From contig CBFIBM010000003.1 of the NCBI GenBank assembly GCA_965660855.1, forward strand, positions 32,001 through 96,000: DNA of 64,000 bases, given 5' to 3'. Below, in pieces: positions 2,577 to 13,820 of the stretch. Under the pieces are notes generated by a model. That model was not told the origin of the DNA, ran no database searches, and worked only from the letters and a program-made list of their open reading frames with translations. Source of the stretch: an uncultured bacterium (GTDB lineage: Bacteria > Fidelibacterota > Marinisomatia > Marinisomatales > UBA1611). How positions within the stretch are numbered: the stretch's first letter is position 1; every line of letters starts with the position of its first letter. A program made the translations under genes and the position numbers.

Positions 2577-3398
2577 ATGCTAAATGAGTTATTTGTAAAT
2601 ATTATTGCTTCTGTTATTTTACTTGTATTTGGTTTTTTTTATGGAAAATATAGAGAGAAAAAATTATATGAAGGGAATAATCTTGAAGATTATGATTTTT
2701 ATCCTTTTAAACTTAATGATGAAAATAATTTAATATTTGACATTGACATTTTTTTTATGGGTGTAAAACATTTGATAAAAAATTTTGATAAGGTTGCGGG
2801 ACATCAATTAATACTCATAGGTCAGCAAAATAATATTAGTGACAAAGTAACAAGAAAAAGGAGAAGACAATATAAAAAATTATATAGAAAATATGACGGG
2901 AAAAAGCTTGTTAACGATACTGATAGGTTTTTAAAAAATTATAAAAGAATAGTTCGGTTAATTGGTGATACCTTTCCAGATTCAGGTATAGAGATTTTAC
3001 TTCATAATTTAACAAATCCTTCTAAAGCGCTTTATCATATTAAAAATAATATCACAGGTCGGAACATCGAAGCTCCTGCGACCAATCTAGTTCATGATTT
3101 AAAAATGCGTGGATTACAAAATAAAGATAAACTTAATTACGAACTAAACATCGGTTCTCGAAAGTTTAAATGTACTACTATTCCAATTTATCGCGAAAAT
3201 TATGGATTAATTGGGGCAATCTGTATAAACGTAGATTACAATTATATAAATGATGAAGTTCGTTCAAGTAATGAGAAATTAGATAGTTTTATTAATTCAA
3301 TTCTGAAAACAGAGATGGTTTTAGATGAAAATATTTTAAGTAAAAATGAGTATGATAAAGCTATTGAGGGTAAAAAACACTTTCGAGATTTTGTATAA
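2577..3398 (+). CDS. Membrane-anchored YheO-like PAS (PAS_6) domain protein, no evident HTH
   Basis: N-terminal TM; EILLHNLTNP...ITGRNIEAPATNL...IGAICINVD match the YheO PAS pattern. Confidence 0.75.
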   Translation: MLNELFVNIIASVILLVFGFFYGKYREKKLYEGNNLEDYDFYPFKLNDENNLIFDIDIFFMGVKHLIKNFDKVAGHQLILIGQQNNISDKVTRKRRRQYKKLYRKYDGKKLVNDTDRFLKNYKRIVRLIGDTFPDSGIEILLHNLTNPSKALYHIKNNITGRNIEAPATNLVHDLKMRGLQNKDKLNYELNIGSRKFKCTTIPIYRENYGLIGAICINVDYNYINDEVRSSNEKLDSFINSILKTEMVLDENILSKNEYDKAIEGKKHFRDFV

Positions 3399-3401
3399 TC
3401 T

Positions 3402-4382
3402 ATGAAATCTAAATTAGACATTTTAAAAGCTTCAGAAAGAATTTCTAAATATGTTAGAAAAACATATTTTTCTTATTCATTCTCTTTTTCCAAAAATATA
3501 AAATCTGAAGTTTGGTTTAAATCTGAAAATTTACAATATACTGGATCTTTTAAAGTTAGAGGTGCATTTAATAAAATATTAAAATTATCACTTTCTGATA
3601 GGGAAAATGGAATATTAGCAGCCTCTACAGGAAACCATGGTGCTGCAATTGCTTATGCAGCTAAAGTATTAAATACTTCATGTACGATTTTTGTTCCTGA
3701 AAATACTGATTCTTCAAAATTAAATAATATAAAAAAATATGGAGCAAAAATAGAAATCTATGGAAATGATTGTATTCTTGCTGAAAGAAAAGCAAGAGAA
3801 GTTTCATATAAAAATAATCAGGTTTATATTTCTCCATATAATGATTTGGATGTAATTGAAGGGCAGGGGACGATTGCTGTTGAAATCATAGACCAAATTG
3901 ATAAACCACTAGATACAGTAATTATTTCTGTTGGCGGTGGTGGTTTGATCAGTGGTATTGCTATTTATTTAAAGTCAATTTGGCCAGAAATTCACATTAT
4001 TGGATGTTCACCAAAAAACTCTGCGGTTATGTTAAAGTCTATTGAAGCAAAAAAAATTCTTGATTTAGAATCCTTAGAAACAATTTCTGACGGAACTGCC
4101 GGAGGAGTTGAAGAAGACTCTATCACATTTCCATTATGTAAAGAATATATTGACGAGTCAGTTTATGTAACAGAGGAAGAAATAAAATCTGGATTAATTC
4201 AATATATGGAAGCTGAGCATCAAATGATTGAAGGAGCAGCAGGCGCTGCGATTGCAACATTAATTAAAAAGAGGTCTTTTTTAAAGAATAAGACTGTTGG
4301 CGTCATTCTTTGTGGAGGGAATATCAATTCAAAGGTACTAGGAGGATTGATAAGGAATGAAAAAAATAATTTTTCCACTTGA
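3402..4382 (+). CDS. PLP-dependent threonine/serine dehydratase (fold II, no ACT domain)
   Basis: KSENLQYTGSFKVRGA, ASTGNHG, VGGGGL motifs. Confidence 0.92.
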   Translation: MKSKLDILKASERISKYVRKTYFSYSFSFSKNIKSEVWFKSENLQYTGSFKVRGAFNKILKLSLSDRENGILAASTGNHGAAIAYAAKVLNTSCTIFVPENTDSSKLNNIKKYGAKIEIYGNDCILAERKAREVSYKNNQVYISPYNDLDVIEGQGTIAVEIIDQIDKPLDTVIISVGGGGLISGIAIYLKSIWPEIHIIGCSPKNSAVMLKSIEAKKILDLESLETISDGTAGGVEEDSITFPLCKEYIDESVYVTEEEIKSGLIQYMEAEHQMIEGAAGAAIATLIKKRSFLKNKTVGVILCGGNINSKVLGGLIRNEKNNFST

Positions 4383-4446: not shown

Positions 4447-4866
4447 GTGATTAAAAATAGATTTCATCTTGCTTTCCCAGTCCATGATTTAAAAATTTCT
4501 AAGGAGTTTTATACTACGGTTTTATCTTGTGAATTAGGACGAGAGTCAGAAAATTGGGTTGATTTCAATTTTTATGGTCATCAAATTGTTGCGCATCTTG
4601 CACCAGAAGATTGTAAAAGTTATAAAGTAAATGTTGTAGATGAAGATAAAATTCCTTCATTCCACTTTGGTTTAATTCTAGAATGGAGTATATGGGAAAC
4701 ACTATATAAAAAGCTTCAATCTATGAAAATAAAGTTTTTTATAAATCCTAAAATAAGGTTTGTGAATCAAAATGGCGAACAAGGAACTTTTTTTATTAAA
4801 GATCCAAGTGGAAATGTTTTAGAGTTCAAAAGTTTTAAGGACTTTGATTATATTTTTACAAAATAA
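4447..4866 (+). CDS. VOC/glyoxalase family protein
   Basis: FHLAFPV, FYGHQIVAH, HFG, DPSGNVLEFK; GTG start. Confidence 0.9.
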   Translation: MIKNRFHLAFPVHDLKISKEFYTTVLSCELGRESENWVDFNFYGHQIVAHLAPEDCKSYKVNVVDEDKIPSFHFGLILEWSIWETLYKKLQSMKIKFFINPKIRFVNQNGEQGTFFIKDPSGNVLEFKSFKDFDYIFTK

Positions 4867-4876
4867 GAAATAAAAA

Positions 4877-6214
4877 ATGTTTAAAATCAATTTTTTACCA
4901 GATAAAAAAGTTTTTGAAGTAGAAAGAGAGGAAACTATCCTCCAAACTGCCATAAGAAATAAAATACCATATGTTAATGCATGTGGAGGTGAAGGAAAAT
5001 GTACTACTTGCCGGTTGATAGTTTTAGAAGGTATTGAAAACTGTTCAGAACAAACAGAGCAAGAAAAAGAATTAAAAGAAAAAGTTCACACTTCAGATGA
5101 ATTTAGATTAGCCTGTCAAACTAAAGTTAATGGGGATATTACGGTTAGAAGGTTAGTCTTGAATAAAGAAGATATTGAATCCGTATCTGAGAGAGGCATT
5201 TCTGGTAGATTAGGTGAAACAAAAAAAATTGCAATATTATTTAGCGATATTAGAGGTTTTACCCCATTTTCAGAAAAATTAACACCCTATGATGTAGTAT
5301 TTATTTTAAATAGGTACTTTACAAGAATGGTTAAATCTGTTGAAGAGAATCAAGGATCCGTAGATAATTATATTGGTGATGGGATGGTTGCTATTTTTGG
5401 ATTACATGGTGAAAAAGAGGCAGCAAAAAAAGCTGTCAAGGCTGCCTTGAGTATGTGTGATGAGATGGATGATATGAAACCATATTTAAAAACGATGTAT
5501 GGACAAGATTTTGATATTGGTATTGGTATTCATTGGGGAGAAGCAGTAGTTGGTGATATTGGAGCAGGGAAATCAAAAAGATTAACTGCTATTGGTGATT
5601 CTATGAATTTTGCGAGTAGAGTAGAGTCTGCTAATAAACAATTTGAATCACGTTTGTTGATTTCAGAAGAAGTTCATGAAGAAATAAAAGATGTACTTAT
5701 TGTAAAAGATTTTATGCGTACAAATTTACCTGGTATCGATGGTCGCGTAACTTTATATGAAGTTGAAGATATAAATTTTTCATCTGAAGAGAAATTAGAA
5801 AATCAAATTATTGAAGAAAATATTACCTGGAACAAAGGACCTGAATTACAGACATTTGATGAATTACCTCAACAAGTTGTTAAAATAAAAAGAGAAGATA
5901 TTTTAATTGTTAAAATTGAACAAAAATTTTACGCTTTAAATGATAAATGTCCTCATGCCTACCTTAGTTTACTTGGTAGTGATATTGATATTAAAAATGA
6001 GACCATAGCATGTAGGTGGCATAAGAGTGAATTCTGTTATAAAACAGGAGAGGTGAGGGAGTGGATGAAAATGAGTAATTTCCAGAAAATACTTGGGAAA
6101 ATAGGTTTAAATGCGGAGGCGAAAGAAGTATCACAAATGGAGCAATTGCCTATTGATGTTTATTCAATAAAGGAACAAGGTGGTTATATTTGGATTGGAT
6201 TTAAAAATGAATAA
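4877..6214 (+). CDS. [2Fe-2S] ferredoxin - class III adenylate/guanylate cyclase - Rieske [2Fe-2S] fusion
   Basis: CGGEGKCTTC...RLAC; LFSDIRGFT, YIGDG, TAIGDSMNFASRVE; CPH...CRWH. Confidence 0.92.
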   Translation: MFKINFLPDKKVFEVEREETILQTAIRNKIPYVNACGGEGKCTTCRLIVLEGIENCSEQTEQEKELKEKVHTSDEFRLACQTKVNGDITVRRLVLNKEDIESVSERGISGRLGETKKIAILFSDIRGFTPFSEKLTPYDVVFILNRYFTRMVKSVEENQGSVDNYIGDGMVAIFGLHGEKEAAKKAVKAALSMCDEMDDMKPYLKTMYGQDFDIGIGIHWGEAVVGDIGAGKSKRLTAIGDSMNFASRVESANKQFESRLLISEEVHEEIKDVLIVKDFMRTNLPGIDGRVTLYEVEDINFSSEEKLENQIIEENITWNKGPELQTFDELPQQVVKIKREDILIVKIEQKFYALNDKCPHAYLSLLGSDIDIKNETIACRWHKSEFCYKTGEVREWMKMSNFQKILGKIGLNAEAKEVSQMEQLPIDVYSIKEQGGYIWIGFKNE

Positions 6215-6229
6215 ATTAGAATTTTAAAA

Positions 6230-6634
6230 ATGGAGAAAAATATGGAATGGACAAAGCTTACAAATATTAAAAGCTTTGATAAAGAATCTCAGCAATTAAT
6301 AAAAGTAAAAAGAGATGAAATCTTAGTCATAAAAGATAATAATGGCTTTCATGCAATAAATAATAGATGTCCTCATATGGGTCTTAGTTTGAATACAACT
6401 AAGTGTAATTTAAAAGATAAAACTGTAAATTGTAAATTCCATTCAAGCTCATTCTCTTATCAAACAGGTGAAGTTAATAGTTGGCTTAATGTCAAGGGAA
6501 TAGAAAAATTCATGATATGGCTTTTTTCGAAATTTGACAATGATGCCAAAGAAATGATGGCAATGAAACCAACTCCGGTTGAGGTGTTCCAGACTAAAGT
6601 TGAAGATGGTTTTGTCTGGGTTGGAATTAATTGA
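6230..6634 (+). CDS. Stand-alone Rieske [2Fe-2S] protein
   Basis: NRCPHMG...CKFH; similar to the C-terminal domain of the upstream cyclase. Confidence 0.9.
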   Translation: MEKNMEWTKLTNIKSFDKESQQLIKVKRDEILVIKDNNGFHAINNRCPHMGLSLNTTKCNLKDKTVNCKFHSSSFSYQTGEVNSWLNVKGIEKFMIWLFSKFDNDAKEMMAMKPTPVEVFQTKVEDGFVWVGIN

Positions 6635-6666
6635 TTTTAATTAAAAAAATAAGGTGATCTTTTAAT

Positions 6667-7101
6667 ATGAAGGATAAAAAAGAGTTTCTAGAAGGTGATA
6701 TTCTTTGGACTAATGTAGCAAAAATATCAAGTTTTACTAAAAAAAACCAACAAGTATTTAATGTAAATAGGAATGAAATATTAGTCATAAAAACAAATGA
6801 TAATTTTAAGGCGATACAAAATAGATGCCCGCATGCTGGCTTATCGATGAAAGGTAGTAAGTTTAATACTAAAACAGAGATAATAACCTGTAAATGGCAT
6901 AAAACATTATTTTGTAGTAAAACAGGTGATGTAAAAAAATGGGTTGATGTAAGTACCTTCGAGAAAAAAATTGCTCATTTTCTCGCTAGATTTAGTAAAA
7001 AAATGAAACAAATGGTGGAAATGAATCCGACTCCAATAGAGATTTTTATTGTTAAAGAAATTAAAGAAGATATATGGGTAGGTATAGAGGTCGGAAATTA
7101 G
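6667..7101 (+). CDS. Stand-alone Rieske [2Fe-2S] protein
   Basis: NRCPHAG...CKWH; paralog of the two upstream Rieske domains. Confidence 0.9.
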   Translation: MKDKKEFLEGDILWTNVAKISSFTKKNQQVFNVNRNEILVIKTNDNFKAIQNRCPHAGLSMKGSKFNTKTEIITCKWHKTLFCSKTGDVKKWVDVSTFEKKIAHFLARFSKKMKQMVEMNPTPIEIFIVKEIKEDIWVGIEVGN

Positions 7102-7606
7102 ACACTTAAAGTATTTTTTTTTAATATTTCTTACTGCATTTTCAGAAATCAACTCAAAAGATATTTGGTATGAGAAAAATTTAAAAGATTTAGAAGATAT
7201 TTCATTAGAACTGAATGTTGTAGGTATTAAGGATGATGTATGGGAATCAAGACTATATAATTTCTTAGAGTTGCGTATTTTAGAGCATGATATTGTGATA
7301 TTAAAAAATCAAATCCCCAAATTGGTTATTGATATTAATATCATTGATTCTAGGGTTGAAAAAACTTCATCTTTCTTTGTAGGACTTAGTTTATATAGTT
7401 ATAGTATCTCAGAAAAAATGTATTACAAGTCTATTGCAGATACTCTTATCACTAAGAAACTTATGACAAGTAAGTTTTTTTCAACTGAAATAATGGGGCA
7501 ATCTTCCTCAAATAATTTGTATAGAGATGTTGAAAAATCTATAAATAGATTAGTATCTAATTTTATTGATCAGTGGTACCAAGATAATCCTCTCAAACAA
7601 TTTTAA
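7097..7606 (+). CDS. Hypothetical exported protein (start probably ATT at 7097 rather than TTG at 7271)
   Basis: Frame is open from 7088 and encodes signal-like IRHLKYFFLIFLTAFSEINS; GAGG lies 6 nt before the ATT. Confidence 0.6.
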   Translation: MRHLKYFFLIFLTAFSEINSKDIWYEKNLKDLEDISLELNVVGIKDDVWESRLYNFLELRILEHDIVILKNQIPKLVIDINIIDSRVEKTSSFFVGLSLYSYSISEKMYYKSIADTLITKKLMTSKFFSTEIMGQSSSNNLYRDVEKSINRLVSNFIDQWYQDNPLKQF

Positions 7607-7695
7607 GTACTCCTAATAAATGTCTTTCTTTGAGATTGATTTATACCGATGTAATTTTAAGCGAAAGTCGAAAATTATCTTTATTTAGATTTATT

Positions 7696-8709
7696 ATGAT
7701 CCGAGCGTTTATTATATCAAATTTTTTGATTTTTTGTTTTGGGCAAGAAATCACAAAAACTGTTTCATATGATACAGGAAATAACCTCGCTGTTTTAAGG
7801 TTCGAAGGTTGGGGGATATCGGACCCGTTAACAAAGTATTTAACAGAAGAATTAAGAGAAACAATTAGAGATTTAGATATATTTCAAGTGCAAGATCGTG
7901 GCTTAACTAATGAAATCAAGATTTATTATCCACGGAAAAAAAATTATTGGGCATGTTGGAGCCAGGAGTGTGTTATTGATATTGGACAAAGGTTAAATGT
8001 CGAATTTATAATTGCCGGTAATATTCAAAAAAGAAATAATGATGAATTTCTAATTAATGGCCGTTTATTTTCGGTTGACATGGAAACATTAGTAAGCGAA
8101 TTCGCAATGAATAGTAGTGGGATAACAGATAGTTTACTATTAGAAATGAAAAAAATGGCTTACAATATAAGTGGGCTCCCTGTTCCCGATACCCTTTCGG
8201 TTGGCTCTGATACAACTTCGGTTATGCTAACTAATAATTTAGATAGAAAAAAAAATTGGTTCTCTCTTCCACCAATACCTAGTAAGATAAAAGCTTTGAT
8301 GATGTCAACGGCACTTCCAGGAAGTGGGCAAATATGGGCACAAAAAAAGATTCCTGGGTATGGATTTATGGGGACCGAAGCAACCCTTGGAACTGCCGCA
8401 TTGATATCCTATCTGCAATATCAAAAATCATGGGGAAATTTTGAAAAAACCTATAATTCATATCAAAATGAATCTGACCCACATAATTTGATTTCAATAA
8501 GACCAAAAGTTATACAATATGCTTCCGAAACACGCAGATATAATTCCTTCATGAAAAATATAAGGAGTATCGCTGCCTCTATCTGGGTTTTTAATATGGT
8601 GCATGCATATTTGGTTGCACCGAATGATGATTTTTTTGATGGGGAATATTTTTTTGATATTGAATACGAACCAAATATTAATCAATTACAATTCAATGTC
8701 AATTTTTAA
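7696..8709 (+). CDS. Exported protein with CsgG/TolB_N-like N-domain and DUF5683-like membrane C-domain
   Basis: Signal peptide from ATG 7696; LAVLRF...CxxxxC..IGQRLNVEFIIAGNI; SxxLPGxGQxW motif. Confidence 0.6.
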   Translation: MIRAFIISNFLIFCFGQEITKTVSYDTGNNLAVLRFEGWGISDPLTKYLTEELRETIRDLDIFQVQDRGLTNEIKIYYPRKKNYWACWSQECVIDIGQRLNVEFIIAGNIQKRNNDEFLINGRLFSVDMETLVSEFAMNSSGITDSLLLEMKKMAYNISGLPVPDTLSVGSDTTSVMLTNNLDRKKNWFSLPPIPSKIKALMMSTALPGSGQIWAQKKIPGYGFMGTEATLGTAALISYLQYQKSWGNFEKTYNSYQNESDPHNLISIRPKVIQYASETRRYNSFMKNIRSIAASIWVFNMVHAYLVAPNDDFFDGEYFFDIEYEPNINQLQFNVNF

Positions 8710-9244
8710 TAAATATAATTTTCTTTTTCATAAAATAATTGTTGTAATTACTATTTATTCATGCGAAGAAGCAGAATACTTATTAGATAATCTTTCTGAT
8801 CCAGAAAATATGGATTTAGTACCACCAGCATTATTTTTTCATCCACCTCAGGTTGATGTAAAACTAGATACTGTAGTTTCTATGCAGGTATATGGCCTTG
8901 GATTACTTCCTGCATCTGCAGCACATTTAAAAATAAAATATGATTGGGGAATGCTACATTATGATTCAACAATAGCAAACGAGTTTTTTACTGGGAATAA
9001 TAATCCAGTTGTAGTTGATATACCAGAACAAGGGTTATTGGACATCTATTTATATTATCTACCTGATTTACTATCTAATCAAAGTAATGGAGGGACATGG
9101 GCTTTAACAACATTATATTTTACCACATATGCTGAAGGTCAATCAGATTTAGAATTTGATACCGAAATTACAGTACTTAAAGATTTTAATAATAATCCTG
9201 TCCTTATTAATGAATTTGGAATTGGTAAGATAAACATTGATTAA
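8696..9244 (+). CDS. Lipoprotein with cohesin-like beta-sandwich domain
   Basis: Lipobox IYSC; HLKIKYD...GTWALTTLYF..GQSDLEF...LKD pattern resembles cohesins. Confidence 0.6.
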   Translation: MSIFNKYNFLFHKIIVVITIYSCEEAEYLLDNLSDPENMDLVPPALFFHPPQVDVKLDTVVSMQVYGLGLLPASAAHLKIKYDWGMLHYDSTIANEFFTGNNNPVVVDIPEQGLLDIYLYYLPDLLSNQSNGGTWALTTLYFTTYAEGQSDLEFDTEITVLKDFNNNPVLINEFGIGKINID

Positions 9245-12200
9245 AATCTTAATATATAGTATCTATTTAATCACTATGATAAATGGTCAACAAAATAATA
9301 GTTATAATTTTCAATCTTCAGGTTTGGATGAAGATTATGTTGTTATCTCATCAGATCCACAAAATCAAGCTACTGCAGGTATGACTCTTGAAGCATGGGT
9401 TTTTCCGAGTAGTGAACCTATTCTTGAGGATATGAGCAGTATTGTTTCTTATGCAACCTTTATTAATCCAGATACAGAATCAGGATATGGTTTTTTTTAT
9501 AAACCTATAACTGGTAAATGGCATTTTGTTGTAGTAGCAGCGAATGATAATAATGTTTTATCTCAAATTGACTCTTGGCCTGGAGTTGAAATTGAAGCAG
9601 ATACATGGACCCATATTGCAGGTACTTATGATGGTGCAATTGCAAGAATTTTTAAAAATGGTGTTGAAGAAGCAAATTATACTTCACCCGGTGGGGCAAT
9701 AGTCTGGGAAAATATTGATACAGAATTATTTATTGGAAAATATATTAATGATAACACCTCTTTTCATGGTTTTATTGATGAAGTGCGAATTTGGGAAATT
9801 GCAAGATTAGAATCAGAAATACAAAATTCTATAAATGAAGTAGTAAGTTCAGATCAATCAGGTTTGATTGGGTATTGGAATTTTAATGATAACCAATCAT
9901 TCACAATATCTAGCCAAGTTGAAGGTGGCACCCCTGGCCTATTAAATAATGCCGGAAATGGCGGTTGGGCTACAGATGTATTTGCAGGTGGCAGTGATGA
10001 ATGTTTTGATAAATTAATTACTATAGATGATTTTCCTCTACTTCATGACGTTATTGATTTTGAAGAGCTAGAGCAAAACAGATTATATAATTTGACTGAA
10101 CTTCCATTTGAAAATGCAGCAGCGGGAGGCCAAGACTATACATATAAACTAACTCTTTTAGATTCAGCAAATATATATTTTACTACATGTGATGCCCAAA
10201 CATATCTTGATGTTGAAATTGCAATATTATCTGAATGTGATATTAATTCAGCTACTTTGTATAATGATGATGCTTTTGGTCAAGCAACTTGGTATTATCC
10301 GGACCCTGCCAATAATATTAACTATAATTTTGGTTGTACTTCTGGAATTGTAGGTAATGAAGGGTATGCAAATATGATACCTTATTGGGAACTCCCCCCT
10401 GGAGATCATTATTTTGTTATTTGTAATCGAGGAGGTGCAGCTCCTACTACTGATGGAGATCCTTGGGAAATTACAAGTTCATTTGGTATAGCTTTAACAG
10501 TGGATTCATTGACTACTTCAGATGATTATTCAGAGATAAATTATCATTTTAGTGAGGGTGTCTATGGTGGGGACTACATAGATGTTTATAATGGAAATTT
10601 ATTGCCTGTAGATCCAAGTGATTATCAAATCAATATAAATCCGAATGAAGGCGCAGCTACAGATGCAACTATACAAAGTTTAACAAAGCTAGATGGTAGT
10701 ACCCTTCCTCCTGGAGATCAAAACATAAAGCTTAATATAGATTATAACGCAAATCCAAGCGGTGTTGAAGAGGTAACGGTTGGTCCTTTTAATGAATCTT
10801 CTATTTTCAATAGCGTTGGTATACCTCTTCTAGATTTAGCTGGGATTACAATTCAACTAATTGATGCATTAAGTCCTACTATTAACCTAATTATACCTCA
10901 AGATGCTCAAGAAGGAGTAGAACAAAATTCTAATATTACAATTACATTTACTGAAGTTGTCAGGGCATCTGATAATACCAATATATCAGATGAGAATTCT
11001 TCTTCATGTTTTAAACTTATCAACACAGAGAATAATGATGAACTACCTTTTTTAATTACAACCTCTGATAATATAACATTTATACTAAACCCTTTAGAAA
11101 ATTTTCCTGAATACACATATATCCGATTAGAAGTTCTTTCTGGAATTGAGGATTTAAATGACAATTCATTCGTTAATAAATCTATTCAATTTAGAACCGA
11201 GGATGTTTCTCCGCCTCTATTCCAAAATGAAAGCTCTATTGCTCTGACCAATGAATTTGTTACAATAAGTTTTACTGAAGGTGTTTATGCGACTAATTCA
11301 GGTACAGGTGCATTAGAGGTTGCAGATTTAGCGTTAACGTATAATATGGGTGAGAATGGTGATTGCTCCGGTGTTACATTAACAGGCTTAAGGAATAATA
11401 GTGGGAATATTTTAACTGGAGGAGAATCAGTTATTCGTGTTTTAATTAATCCAAATTCTGCTCCCAATGGACAGGAAACACTGTTTTTTTCTGCATTTAA
11501 TAATAATTCAATATTTGACTTAGCTGGCAATGCTCTTTTAACAGGGAACTCTCCTGAGGTTTCACTCAATGTCTCTGCAAAGATTAATAACATAAGCCTT
11601 CCTGATAGTAATGAGTATGCAGATATACAGTTTTCTGTAGGAGTATATGGAAACTCCGATTTGACAATACCTTTAAATATCTCTTCATTAAATTTTGATT
11701 TTATTCAAAATGAAGAGGATGGCGGGAATGCATCAACTGTTGTAATTAATTACTTGAAAAATACTGAAAATGAAAATTTATCTGGTGGTGAAAGTATAAT
11801 TCGAGTTTATATGTCACTGGATACATTACCATCTGGCGTTGAAAATATTATTGTTTATCCAAATTCGAATAACAGCATATATAGTTTTTCTGGAGTACCA
11901 ATGCCTGTTGGGGAAAATGACACAGTAACTTTGAAAGATCAATTACCTTTAACAAGTATACAAAATATCCAAGATGGAGAGATTAATATTAATCAAAACG
12001 AGTCGATATCAATTCAATTTGATGATGCTGTATGGTTACCCGGGCCTCCAGCAAAAAAAGCAACAAAAGAAGATTTGGATGATTTTTTCGTGCTACAAAA
12101 CCAAACGAATAACATGGACTATATAATAGGTATAGACTATGTTACAGTTCTTGATACAATTAACAATATTTATTCGATTTATCCTTTAGAACCATTTTCT

Positions 12201-13820
12201 AGCGAGGATTCAATATCGTATTCATTTACTGGAACAGTCCAGGATATTTCAGGTAATCAAATTGAATTAAATTATTTCGCTACTTTTGTTATCCAAGATT
12301 ATTTACCACCTCAAATAAATGCAAATACATTAGCACCGGATAATACTTATTGGGATTTATACTTTGATGACGGTTTGTTCAGTGATTTTAATGCTTTAAA
12401 CCCTATAACACCCCAAAATTTTGATATTTCAATTATCCCCAATGATAGTGATGTTGATTCGATAGCTATAACGAGTGTAACTAAAATAGATGGAAATTTT
12501 TTAAGTGGAGGAGAAAGTATTCTTCGCTTAAATCTTGCATACAATAGTACTCCTTCTGGAAATGAATTTATCAATTTGAATCTGAGCCAAAGTGGCCAAA
12601 TTTTTGATGAATCTGGGAATCAAATGGAACCAAATTCCTTTGTTGCAAAAGATACTTTATATGATATTCTTCCGCCAAGTATAACTAGTGTTACTTTAGA
12701 AACATCAATTGATTCTTTATTAGTTTTATTTAAAGAGAGAACACTTCAATATAACTTTAATGAAAAAATTAAATCTTTAAGTTATTCTGTTACTTCAAAT
12801 CATATTGATTCTCTAAATGTTATATCTAATATCTCTGACAGTTCTATTAGCTTAACTTTACAGCCACCATTTGCTAGTTTTGATTCTATTACAGTTAATT
12901 TTGATGAAATTAAAGATTCGAGTGATTTGACTACTGTTGATATTGCATATACATATTTAACACCGATGCTTGGTGATTATAATTTAGATACTTCAATAAA
13001 CTATCTAGATTTACTGGATTTAGTTGATAATTGGAAAATTCCTAATTTAGAATATGAATTAGGACCATTTGTTGGGGAGGCTCCTCATTTTATTTCTAAT
13101 CCGGATAGTAAGTTTGATATTGAAGATGGAATGGCATTTATGAAAATGTGGTCATGGTATCAAAAAACATATGGTGAGATAGTTGATGATATTGAGCAAC
13201 TAGGTGAACTACCTCGGATTTATTTTGAGAAGAATAATTTAATTTTTGTACTTGAGGAAGATATTTCAGCAGGCCAATTTCAATTTAACTATGCTATATC
13301 TCAGTTTCCACCTCTTACAGTTCAAAATAAAAGCTCTAATGAGAACGATTTATTCTTGACTAGTCATTCAAGTGAGAGAGGGTTTTCAATAGTCGAGTTT
13401 GCCAGGGAGGAGAGTGATGTTAAACCAGATACAATTAAAATTTTAATTGATAGCAATAATAAATTAAACTTGTTTTATACTTTAACTAATTCAAAAAAAG
13501 TAATAATACAAAAGGGATCTACAGAGCTTGATTTTACTCAATTACCTAATAATCTCGCATTAGACCCCGCTTTCCCAAATCCATTTAATCCATTGACAAC
13601 TCTATATTTTGACATTCCAGGAACAGCGAAGTCAAGCCCTGTTCTTATTGAGATATATGATATAAAAGGAAGAAGTGTTGAAACCCTTATTGAAGGTTAT
13701 ACCTCGCCAGGTAGGCATAATATAAAATGGAATGCTACGCAGTTTTCATCAGGAATCTATTTTGTGAAATTGAGCTATGATAATCATAGTAGAACTCAAA
13801 AAGTAATATTGTTAAAATAA
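9237..13820 (+). CDS. Large secreted surface protein: LamG, repeated Ig-like domains, dockerin-like motif and PNPFNP C-terminal sorting domain
   Basis: MTLEAWV/WTHIAGTYDG/GFIDEVRIW (LamG); four xxEGVY...GGESxIR...PSGxE repeats; GDYNLDTSINYLDL; FPNPFNP...SSGIYF...KVILLK. Confidence 0.85.
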   Translation: MIKILIYSIYLITMINGQQNNSYNFQSSGLDEDYVVISSDPQNQATAGMTLEAWVFPSSEPILEDMSSIVSYATFINPDTESGYGFFYKPITGKWHFVVVAANDNNVLSQIDSWPGVEIEADTWTHIAGTYDGAIARIFKNGVEEANYTSPGGAIVWENIDTELFIGKYINDNTSFHGFIDEVRIWEIARLESEIQNSINEVVSSDQSGLIGYWNFNDNQSFTISSQVEGGTPGLLNNAGNGGWATDVFAGGSDECFDKLITIDDFPLLHDVIDFEELEQNRLYNLTELPFENAAAGGQDYTYKLTLLDSANIYFTTCDAQTYLDVEIAILSECDINSATLYNDDAFGQATWYYPDPANNINYNFGCTSGIVGNEGYANMIPYWELPPGDHYFVICNRGGAAPTTDGDPWEITSSFGIALTVDSLTTSDDYSEINYHFSEGVYGGDYIDVYNGNLLPVDPSDYQININPNEGAATDATIQSLTKLDGSTLPPGDQNIKLNIDYNANPSGVEEVTVGPFNESSIFNSVGIPLLDLAGITIQLIDALSPTINLIIPQDAQEGVEQNSNITITFTEVVRASDNTNISDENSSSCFKLINTENNDELPFLITTSDNITFILNPLENFPEYTYIRLEVLSGIEDLNDNSFVNKSIQFRTEDVSPPLFQNESSIALTNEFVTISFTEGVYATNSGTGALEVADLALTYNMGENGDCSGVTLTGLRNNSGNILTGGESVIRVLINPNSAPNGQETLFFSAFNNNSIFDLAGNALLTGNSPEVSLNVSAKINNISLPDSNEYADIQFSVGVYGNSDLTIPLNISSLNFDFIQNEEDGGNASTVVINYLKNTENENLSGGESIIRVYMSLDTLPSGVENIIVYPNSNNSIYSFSGVPMPVGENDTVTLKDQLPLTSIQNIQDGEININQNESISIQFDDAVWLPGPPAKKATKEDLDDFFVLQNQTNNMDYIIGIDYVTVLDTINNIYSIYPLEPFSSEDSISYSFTGTVQDISGNQIELNYFATFVIQDYLPPQINANTLAPDNTYWDLYFDDGLFSDFNALNPITPQNFDISIIPNDSDVDSIAITSVTKIDGNFLSGGESILRLNLAYNSTPSGNEFINLNLSQSGQIFDESGNQMEPNSFVAKDTLYDILPPSITSVTLETSIDSLLVLFKERTLQYNFNEKIKSLSYSVTSNHIDSLNVISNISDSSISLTLQPPFASFDSITVNFDEIKDSSDLTTVDIAYTYLTPMLGDYNLDTSINYLDLLDLVDNWKIPNLEYELGPFVGEAPHFISNPDSKFDIEDGMAFMKMWSWYQKTYGEIVDDIEQLGELPRIYFEKNNLIFVLEEDISAGQFQFNYAISQFPPLTVQNKSSNENDLFLTSHSSERGFSIVEFAREESDVKPDTIKILIDSNNKLNLFYTLTNSKKVIIQKGSTELDFTQLPNNLALDPAFPNPFNPLTTLYFDIPGTAKSSPVLIEIYDIKGRSVETLIEGYTSPGRHNIKWNATQFSSGIYFVKLSYDNHSRTQKVILLK

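Follow-up and report, generated by a model that had tools for sequence, protein, structure and literature searches.

A putative soluble ferredoxin-cyclase of the CyaC kind with a fused Rieske domain and lineage-specific free Rieske copies in Marinimicrobia

In the literature consulted, so far as its text was accessible, CyaC of S. meliloti (SMc01818) is the one redox-regulated ferredoxin-cyclase that has been characterised, and it senses via membrane haems. The accessible portions of two reports describe CyaC as carrying haem-B and a [2Fe-2S] cluster and as being activated after oxidation by quinones (PMC10463352; PMC9552081). Its N terminus is a six-helix dihaem-B membrane anchor, and a [2Fe-2S] ferredoxin stands directly before its class III cyclase domain. 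To our knowledge, the role of this [2Fe-2S] cluster is unsettled. A second kind of described protein is the Rieske ferredoxin of dioxygenase systems (TodB, 3dqy/4emj; NahAb, 2qpz; BphF, 1fqt; CarAc), which is soluble, binds its cluster through CxH...CxxH ligands, has no disulfide and is encoded with a reductase and a terminal oxygenase. Here we analysed a stretch of 64,000 nt (the window; contig CBFIBM010000003.1 of assembly GCA_965660855.1, positions 32,001 to 96,000) from an uncultured bacterium (Fidelibacterota; Marinisomatia; Marinisomatales; UBA1611), which the names given to its close homologues would place in Candidatus Marinimicrobia. In it, a gene for a ferredoxin-class III cyclase-Rieske fusion is followed by two genes for free Rieske proteins, and an earlier note, made from the DNA letters and their open reading frames, had proposed that the three form a redox- or O2-sensing module.

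The Pfam matches of all three proteins lie above the curated cut-offs. The fusion matches Fer2 at residues 8-84 (E 5.6e-11), Guanylate_cyc at 114-271 (E 9.4e-22; 77.9 bits against a cut-off of 21.9) and Rieske at 332-402 (E 9.7e-12), and together with the ligand alignment this bears out the architecture first described for it, with both metal Asp residues and the NxxxR pair intact. Like CyaC, the fusion has the ferredoxin directly before the cyclase, with the same Cys motif and catalytic residues, and its ferredoxin-cyclase core is 33% identical to CyaC residues 255-516 over 263 aa (E 1e-50). In contrast to CyaC, it starts at the ferredoxin, without an anchor; it has a C-terminal Rieske domain, Asn164 and free Rieske neighbours, whereas CyaC has no Rieske domain and a Lys at site 164. 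As judged from sequence, the window protein thus resembles CyaC in design but, taking the anchor as the mark of membership, is not a CyaC. The best sequence and structure matches of its catalytic domain are CyaB (P. aeruginosa), Cya2 (Synechocystis) and CyaC (Spirulina), and none of the solved class III cyclase chains matched also carries a ferredoxin or Rieske part.

An AlphaFold2 model of the fusion built from 78 sequences reached a mean predicted local distance difference test score (pLDDT) of 86 and a predicted template modelling score of 0.75, superseding an earlier model from 23 sequences (pLDDT 66.5). In this model, the ferredoxin domain resembles E. coli Fdx (1i7h; Z 14.5, root mean square deviation (rmsd) 2.8, 101 aligned residues), the cyclase domain resembles 2w01 (Z 27.2) and CyaB (3r5g, Z 27.0; rmsd 1.8, 190 aligned), and the fused Rieske domain, into which a predicted linker beta-hairpin leads, resembles the naphthalene dioxygenase ferredoxin (2qpz; Z 16.1, rmsd 1.7, 102 aligned). 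Confidence is lowest at an insert in the Rieske domain (pLDDT <50, residues 399-418).

A scan of GTDB contigs gave 375 confirmed stretches, and the locus figures below rest on the best 80 of these; because the loci were ranked against a three-domain query, they give no estimate of how often the core occurs without a Rieske domain. The fusion is present in 79 of the best 80 loci, with all three domains in one frame in 78 and the Rieske part split across frames in one (L097); the remaining locus (L065) has no Rieske part. Taxa include Mesorhizobium, Ensifer, Rhizobium, Phyllobacterium, Rhodobacteraceae, SAR324, Bacteriovoracaceae, Burkholderiales, Acidimicrobiia and Methylomirabilota besides Marinimicrobia, and the idea of a lineage-specific fusion was rejected on this spread. 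The 120 full-protein matches listed are 60-100% identical and all have cyclase and Rieske, 118 with Fer2. We aligned 105 rows, namely the window, 24 family loci and the 80 GTDB loci, some genomes appearing twice and L023 being excluded for a ferredoxin missing at a contig end. The ferredoxin ligands C36, C45 and C80 are present in all 105 rows and C42 in 104; D124, D168 and N244 are present in every row, as are R248 and K254, but the latter two had been preselected by the scan pattern (R248 in 80 rows). C358 and H360 of the Rieske domain are kept in 104 rows, C379 in 101 and H382 in 100; where one is missing, the row is truncated or ambiguous.

Searching with a Rieske-part profile brought up more remote fusions (P0278, P0302) as well as P0244, in which four CDGSH motifs precede the other domains; CDGSH is present in most of the 120 relatives listed for P0244. 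Three ESM Atlas clusters are named for the Fer2-cyclase-Rieske string; others read CDGSH-Fer2-cyclase, and globin-Fer2-cyclase clusters (score 0.86) are a lead only. The earlier note knew of no described protein of this architecture. A literature search, with subscription journals mostly outside its reach, likewise turned up no description of the fusion; however, automatic JGI names already carry the three-domain string. Judged by sequence, the window protein would be a CyaC-like cyclase in soluble form, its Rieske part duplicated in one lineage; this variant is apparently undescribed, although its domain string is already in databases. Several variants were seen along the way. CDGSH forms have two or four motifs before the ferredoxin-cyclase-Rieske string (P0244; L056:4491-6254; L058:767-2305), giving up to six predicted [2Fe-2S] sites per cyclase in SAR324 and Rhodobacteraceae records. 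Fusions of the rhizobial type (L083, L124 and other alphaproteobacterial loci), found in cultured strains, have an extra loop of 10-23 residues between the Rieske ligand motifs. Several members of the P0302 cluster are split into proteins of 235 aa and 169/199 aa, apparently on the same contigs, with a recurring break inside the cyclase domain. A planctomycete protein (P0234) consists of three tandem Rieske domains.

The second and third genes of the locus match Pfam Rieske at E 1.4e-14 and 1e-13. The three Rieske domains of the window are 35-43% identical to one another (BLAST E 1e-35 to 1e-40), so that the two adjacent genes are indeed stand-alone paralogs of the fused domain, as had been noted from the motifs. 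Those motifs are shared as reported, except that the KR start fails in the third gene, which reads NRNEIL. All three copies have the CxH...CxxH ligands and no disulfide pair. The fusion is separated from the first free Rieske gene by 15 nt, and the first from the second by 32 nt. The rest of the genome (2.09 Mb, 31% G+C, 84% complete) gave no match to the three domains at E<0.01; it holds three other Pfam Rieske frames besides the locus, and one Rieske-domain frame is 357 aa long. The window Rieskes share 35-48% identity with other Marinimicrobia Rieskes (65% with orthologues) and 29-34% with P0230; the figure is 23-27% for five further free Rieskes and 18-33% for fused domains from other phyla. 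The free copies thereby group with the fused domain, and the identities fit an origin from it. The type-C copy (the third gene; types are defined below) has an N-terminal stretch, EFLEGDILW, that resembles the linker hairpin of the fusion, which suggests that this copy derived from the fusion.

The fusion was found in 25 of 36 same-family genomes and in none of 24 genomes from other families of the order. Across the phylum, 27 of 401 genomes have the Rieske subfamily, namely the genome of the window, 25 of 43 family genomes and a single further one. Among the 26 fusion-bearing family genomes, the window's included, two have two free copies, 14 have one and ten have none; both two-copy genomes belong to the window's genus. 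Rather than being unrelated and unlinked elsewhere, an outcome the earlier note had allowed for, the Rieskes group by identity, and each of the 18 free copies (from 16 genomes) immediately follows a fusion, with a contig break intervening in two cases. No free copy was found in the 11 family genomes without a fusion. Among the 80 GTDB loci, 15 were placed in the lineage (8 of them by sequence); none of the 65 other-lineage loci has an adjacent free copy, several flanks being short and two loci having other Rieske-type matches further off. When 15 other-lineage genomes were searched whole, no stand-alone copy of the fused type was found, and there were two weak extra matches (a 545-aa frame and a 42-aa fragment). 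Two free copies as part of the family design, proposed at the outset as two dedicated partners, were accordingly rejected. Because the fusion so often occurs without free copies, partners are not required. Type B is the common free type in the family, and its orthologues from different genera share 66-74% identity. In a set of 41 free copies, neither the His ligands nor the first Cys varies, and the second Cys is kept in at least 90%. This conservation indicates that type B is under selection and is not a remnant. Type C was seen in the three genomes of the window's genus. One free Rieske, more remote at 102 bits where the others score 165-261, is not linked to the cyclase; a protein of this kind, from the P0230 cluster (105 members), stands beside a ferritin-like gene at L044:4666-5688.

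Compared with the dioxygenase Rieske ferredoxins, with which they share the fold, the window Rieskes have a Ser/Thr two places after the last His and about 25-30 extra residues at the proline loop, where profile positions 86-114 are unmatched in TodB. According to the accessible text of PMC12954380, this loop covers one side of the Rieske cluster. Unlike those ferredoxins, the window Rieskes are fused to or beside a cyclase, and neither an oxygenase nor a reductase gene lies next to them in the window or in the family loci. We assigned five insert types (A-E) by eye from alignments. Type A is the fused type in all 16 loci with free copies, and type D or E in the ten loci without; types B and C are free, and type D is also free once (L013). 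Five loci fetched later all fit, one being type A with a free B and four (two D, two E) having no free copy, in one of which the contig stops after just 298 nt. A free copy is present at every type-A locus for which there is downstream DNA. The more hydrophobic inserts of types B and D may serve in docking, a task that type A would have passed to a free copy. One assembly (G395) has two fusion loci with the same flanking genes (L135 and L136), one with type D alone and one with type A and a free copy; its large number of ambiguous bases points to a mixed bin and therefore to alternative alleles at one site.

That the fusion is a redox-sensing cyclase is plausible, given the homology of its core to CyaC and the conservation of its ligands in different phyla; of the module first proposed, this part stands, whereas the two dedicated partners do not. 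Our preferred reading, which we hold tentatively and as falling a little short of probable, is that the fusion is a soluble, CyaC-like, redox-gated adenylyl cyclase that receives its input via the Rieske domain in place of haems, with the free copies serving as optional shuttles. The fusion would act as a homodimer, like other bacterial class III cyclases, and the Rieske domain would stand in for the dihaem anchor of CyaC as the point of exchange with cellular redox pools. The Cys4 ferredoxin, placed just before a helix (residues 97-104) that leads into the catalytic domain, may transmit its redox state to the active site. His2Cys2 (Rieske) clusters are higher in potential than Cys4 clusters, as stated in the part of PMC12954380 available, and electrons would on this ground most likely pass from ferredoxin to Rieske to an oxidant. 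The Rieske domain would thus most likely drain the electrons of the ferredoxin, and the oxidised form would be active, as for CyaC. In one Marinimicrobia lineage, the C-terminal domain would have been duplicated, and the free copies could link the enzyme to other redox partners through their differing inserts. A functional precedent for such a relay is ThnA3-ThnY of Sphingopyxis granuli, where, in the accessible text, a regulatory Fe-S protein receives electrons from a free ferredoxin of a Rieske system (PMC4814904); the likeness is one of function, homology not having been compared. ThnY is an iron-sulfur flavoprotein that acts with a transcription activator, and the circuit contains no cyclase. 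The output of the fusion might be read by a CRP-type regulator. The genome has one CRP-like protein, several other frames that bind cyclic nucleotide monophosphates (cNMPs) and at least seven other cyclase-like loci, so that a reader of the signal exists but is not tied to the fusion cyclase. The preferred reading also draws support from the other redox or gas modules carried by the same core, two or four CDGSH motifs and, as a lead, globin.

Several observations weigh against it. Of 36 family genomes, 11 lack the fusion, several of these being >90% complete, and the fusion stands without free copies in 10/26 family genomes, 65/65 other-lineage loci and 15/15 other-lineage genomes. Among the conserved neighbours in the family loci, there is neither a reductase gene nor a quinone-linked gene. 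The match between type A and free copies comes from one gene clade, and since the loci are kin, it counts as one evolutionary event and not as independent cases. The residue at site 164 is Asn instead of the ATP-specifying Lys in 63 of 105 rows, all Marinimicrobia rows included. The sequences establish the domain anatomy, its conservation and the linkage of the free copies; redox control, the nucleotide made, and relay or competition by the free copies are predictions that go further. Rieske potential is poorly predicted by sequence: a Rieske protein with Ser/Phe was measured at +335 mV (PMC12954380, in the part accessible), and reading redox potential from sequence was rejected on this counter-example. 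When a complex was predicted from the type-B free Rieske and two ferredoxin-cyclase chains covering residues 1-303, the score was 0.00, which is no answer and bears neither way on binding.

An alternative is that the fusion is a redox-gated cyclase, and that the free Rieskes are duplicates which have become general electron carriers and are adjacent to it only because tandem duplicates stay put. It accounts for a free copy number of 0, 1 or 2, with none in most lineages, and is consistent with dioxygenase ferredoxins being the closest solved relatives of the Rieskes; the 357-aa Rieske-domain frame could be an acceptor, and the P0230-type relative lies away from the cyclase. However, not one of the 18 close free copies has moved away from or outlasted its fusion, despite highly variable flanks, and the constant company of type A and a free copy argues in the same direction. 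We consider it unlikely, though deserving of serious weight.

It is quite unlikely, in our view, that the signal is the occupancy of or damage to the clusters (through iron supply, nitric oxide or peroxide) and not reversible redox change, so that the cyclase would be switched as a cluster is lost or gained, with the free copies as cluster buffers or decoys. The stacking of up to four CDGSH motifs before the ferredoxin in relatives would suit such a sensor, as would the ferritin-like gene that adjoins a sister free Rieske, and CDGSH/NEET clusters are described in the accessible part of PMC8463382 as transferable when oxidised. On the other side, the characterised homologue CyaC responds to reversible quinone oxidation, to go by the accessible text on it, and genes for Fe-S assembly or iron uptake are not among the conserved neighbours in the family loci read.

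The first of the purine-specifying residues of the cyclase, which the earlier note passed over, is Asn164 (DNYIGDG), where CyaB and CyaC have Lys, so that the window protein lacks the canonical adenylyl cyclase set (Lys with Asp/Thr) although Thr237 is present. Over the 105 rows, this position is N in 63, K in 39, S in 2 and R in 1, Glu being absent, and T237 is kept in 98; N164 is invariant in 23/23 Marinimicrobia-type proteins. In the text available of PMC4215837 and PMC4886424, Lys/Asp specify ATP and Glu is the mark of GTP use and of guanylyl cyclases. We read the protein as a member of an adenylyl-cyclase family whose Lys has relaxed to Asn, and its product is most likely cyclic AMP (cAMP). 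Rv1900c is reportedly an active adenylyl cyclase with Asn at the equivalent site. That the Lys to Asn change leaves the enzyme poorly active, or relaxes or alters its specificity (towards cyclic GMP besides cAMP, or towards a pyrimidine product of the Pycsar kind), is very unlikely: the invariant N164, the lost ATP-specifying Lys and matches to PADLOC PycC models (best E 4.6e-27) speak for it, but 39 rows keep Lys and none has Glu, T237 is nearly constant, and the cyclic UMP synthase 7r65 matches far more weakly than adenylyl cyclases do (E 0.023 against 2.8e-25). A Pycsar system was rejected on the last comparison and because no effector was matched among the neighbours tested: three neighbour proteins had no match to PADLOC models, and a Pfam scan found no cNMP-binding domain in any flanking protein scanned.

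Beyond these readings, a broader conjecture, which we rate as quite doubtful, would have ferredoxin-cyclases be modular redox-to-cAMP converters with swappable input electrodes (dihaem, CDGSH, globin or Rieske). In the Marinimicrobia lineage, the Rieske electrode would have been set free in part, as diffusible copies of differing tuning. By means of the variable insert next to the cluster, these could reach different pools of electrons, the hydrophobic insert of type B, for instance, giving access to the membrane. A single cyclase might then integrate several redox inputs through a ferredoxin relay analogous to phosphorelays, with the cassette swapped at one chromosomal site.

The surprise is moderate, as the design extends a known kind. 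A soluble homologue of CyaC with only Fe-S cofactors allows a direct test of the role of the [2Fe-2S] cluster, and the presence of the fusion in cultured bacteria (Mesorhizobium, Rhizobium, Phyllobacterium and Rhodobacteraceae HIMB11) means that it can be studied without cultivating Marinimicrobia. If redox control is true, abundant uncultured lineages (Marinimicrobia, SAR324) have a cytoplasmic route from redox state to cAMP. If the shuttle role is true, a cyclase would be regulated by its own released domain. The coordinates of the features are collected in Table 1.

Table 1. Genes and domains of the ferredoxin-cyclase-Rieske locus, in window coordinates
Feature	Position	Strand	Basis
Fer2-class III cyclase-Rieske fusion gene, 445 aa	4877..6214	+	Open reading frame and Pfam; AlphaFold2 model
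N-terminal [2Fe-2S] ferredoxin domain, C36/C42/C45/C80, Cx5Cx2C spacing	4877..5161	+	Pfam Fer2
Class III nucleotide cyclase domain, D124/D168/N244/R248/T237, Asn164 at Lys site	5213..5773	+	Pfam Guanylate_cyc
C-terminal Rieske domain, dioxygenase-ferredoxin type, C358/H360/C379/H382	5804..6211	+	Pfam Rieske
Variable helical insert (about residues 396-422), type A in the window fusion	6062..6142	+	Alignments read by eye
Free Rieske protein, type B, 134 aa, hydrophobic insert (IEKFMIWLFSKF)	6230..6634	+	Pfam Rieske
Free Rieske protein, type C, 144 aa	6667..7101	+	Pfam Rieske
VOC/glyoxalase-family gene, 10 nt upstream of the cyclase	4447..4866	+	Pfam Glyoxalase

The VOC gene lies beside the fusion in most family loci. 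It is also present in 5 family genomes without the fusion and was unmatched by the same query in 4 with it, and an obligate partnership was therefore rejected. In one genome (G028:C78:7552-8268), the VOC gene follows the free Rieske gene and does not precede the cyclase, so that the linkage was kept after a rearrangement. Otherwise, the flanking genes of the family loci vary greatly. Metatranscriptome contigs from 4 runs cover parts of all three genes of the locus at a depth of about 2-11, although contigs cannot show transcription. A promoter scan gave 29 sites against 33.7 expected and was uninformative.

Upstream of the VOC gene, positions 2577-4382 encode a YheO-like PAS protein and then a threonine/serine dehydratase (PRK06815); a dehydratase of this type adjoins the locus in few relatives. 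At position 4048, one contig from an RNA library has a one-base insertion in the dehydratase gene, a single case and possibly an error. Downstream, positions 7271-8709 hold an unknown gene, whose homologues suggest a start upstream of 7271, and a DUF5683 gene; the two are often the downstream flank in relatives. Further on, positions 9237-13820 encode an acidic protein of 1527 aa that, by eye, looks secreted and has a C-terminal sorting-like tail.

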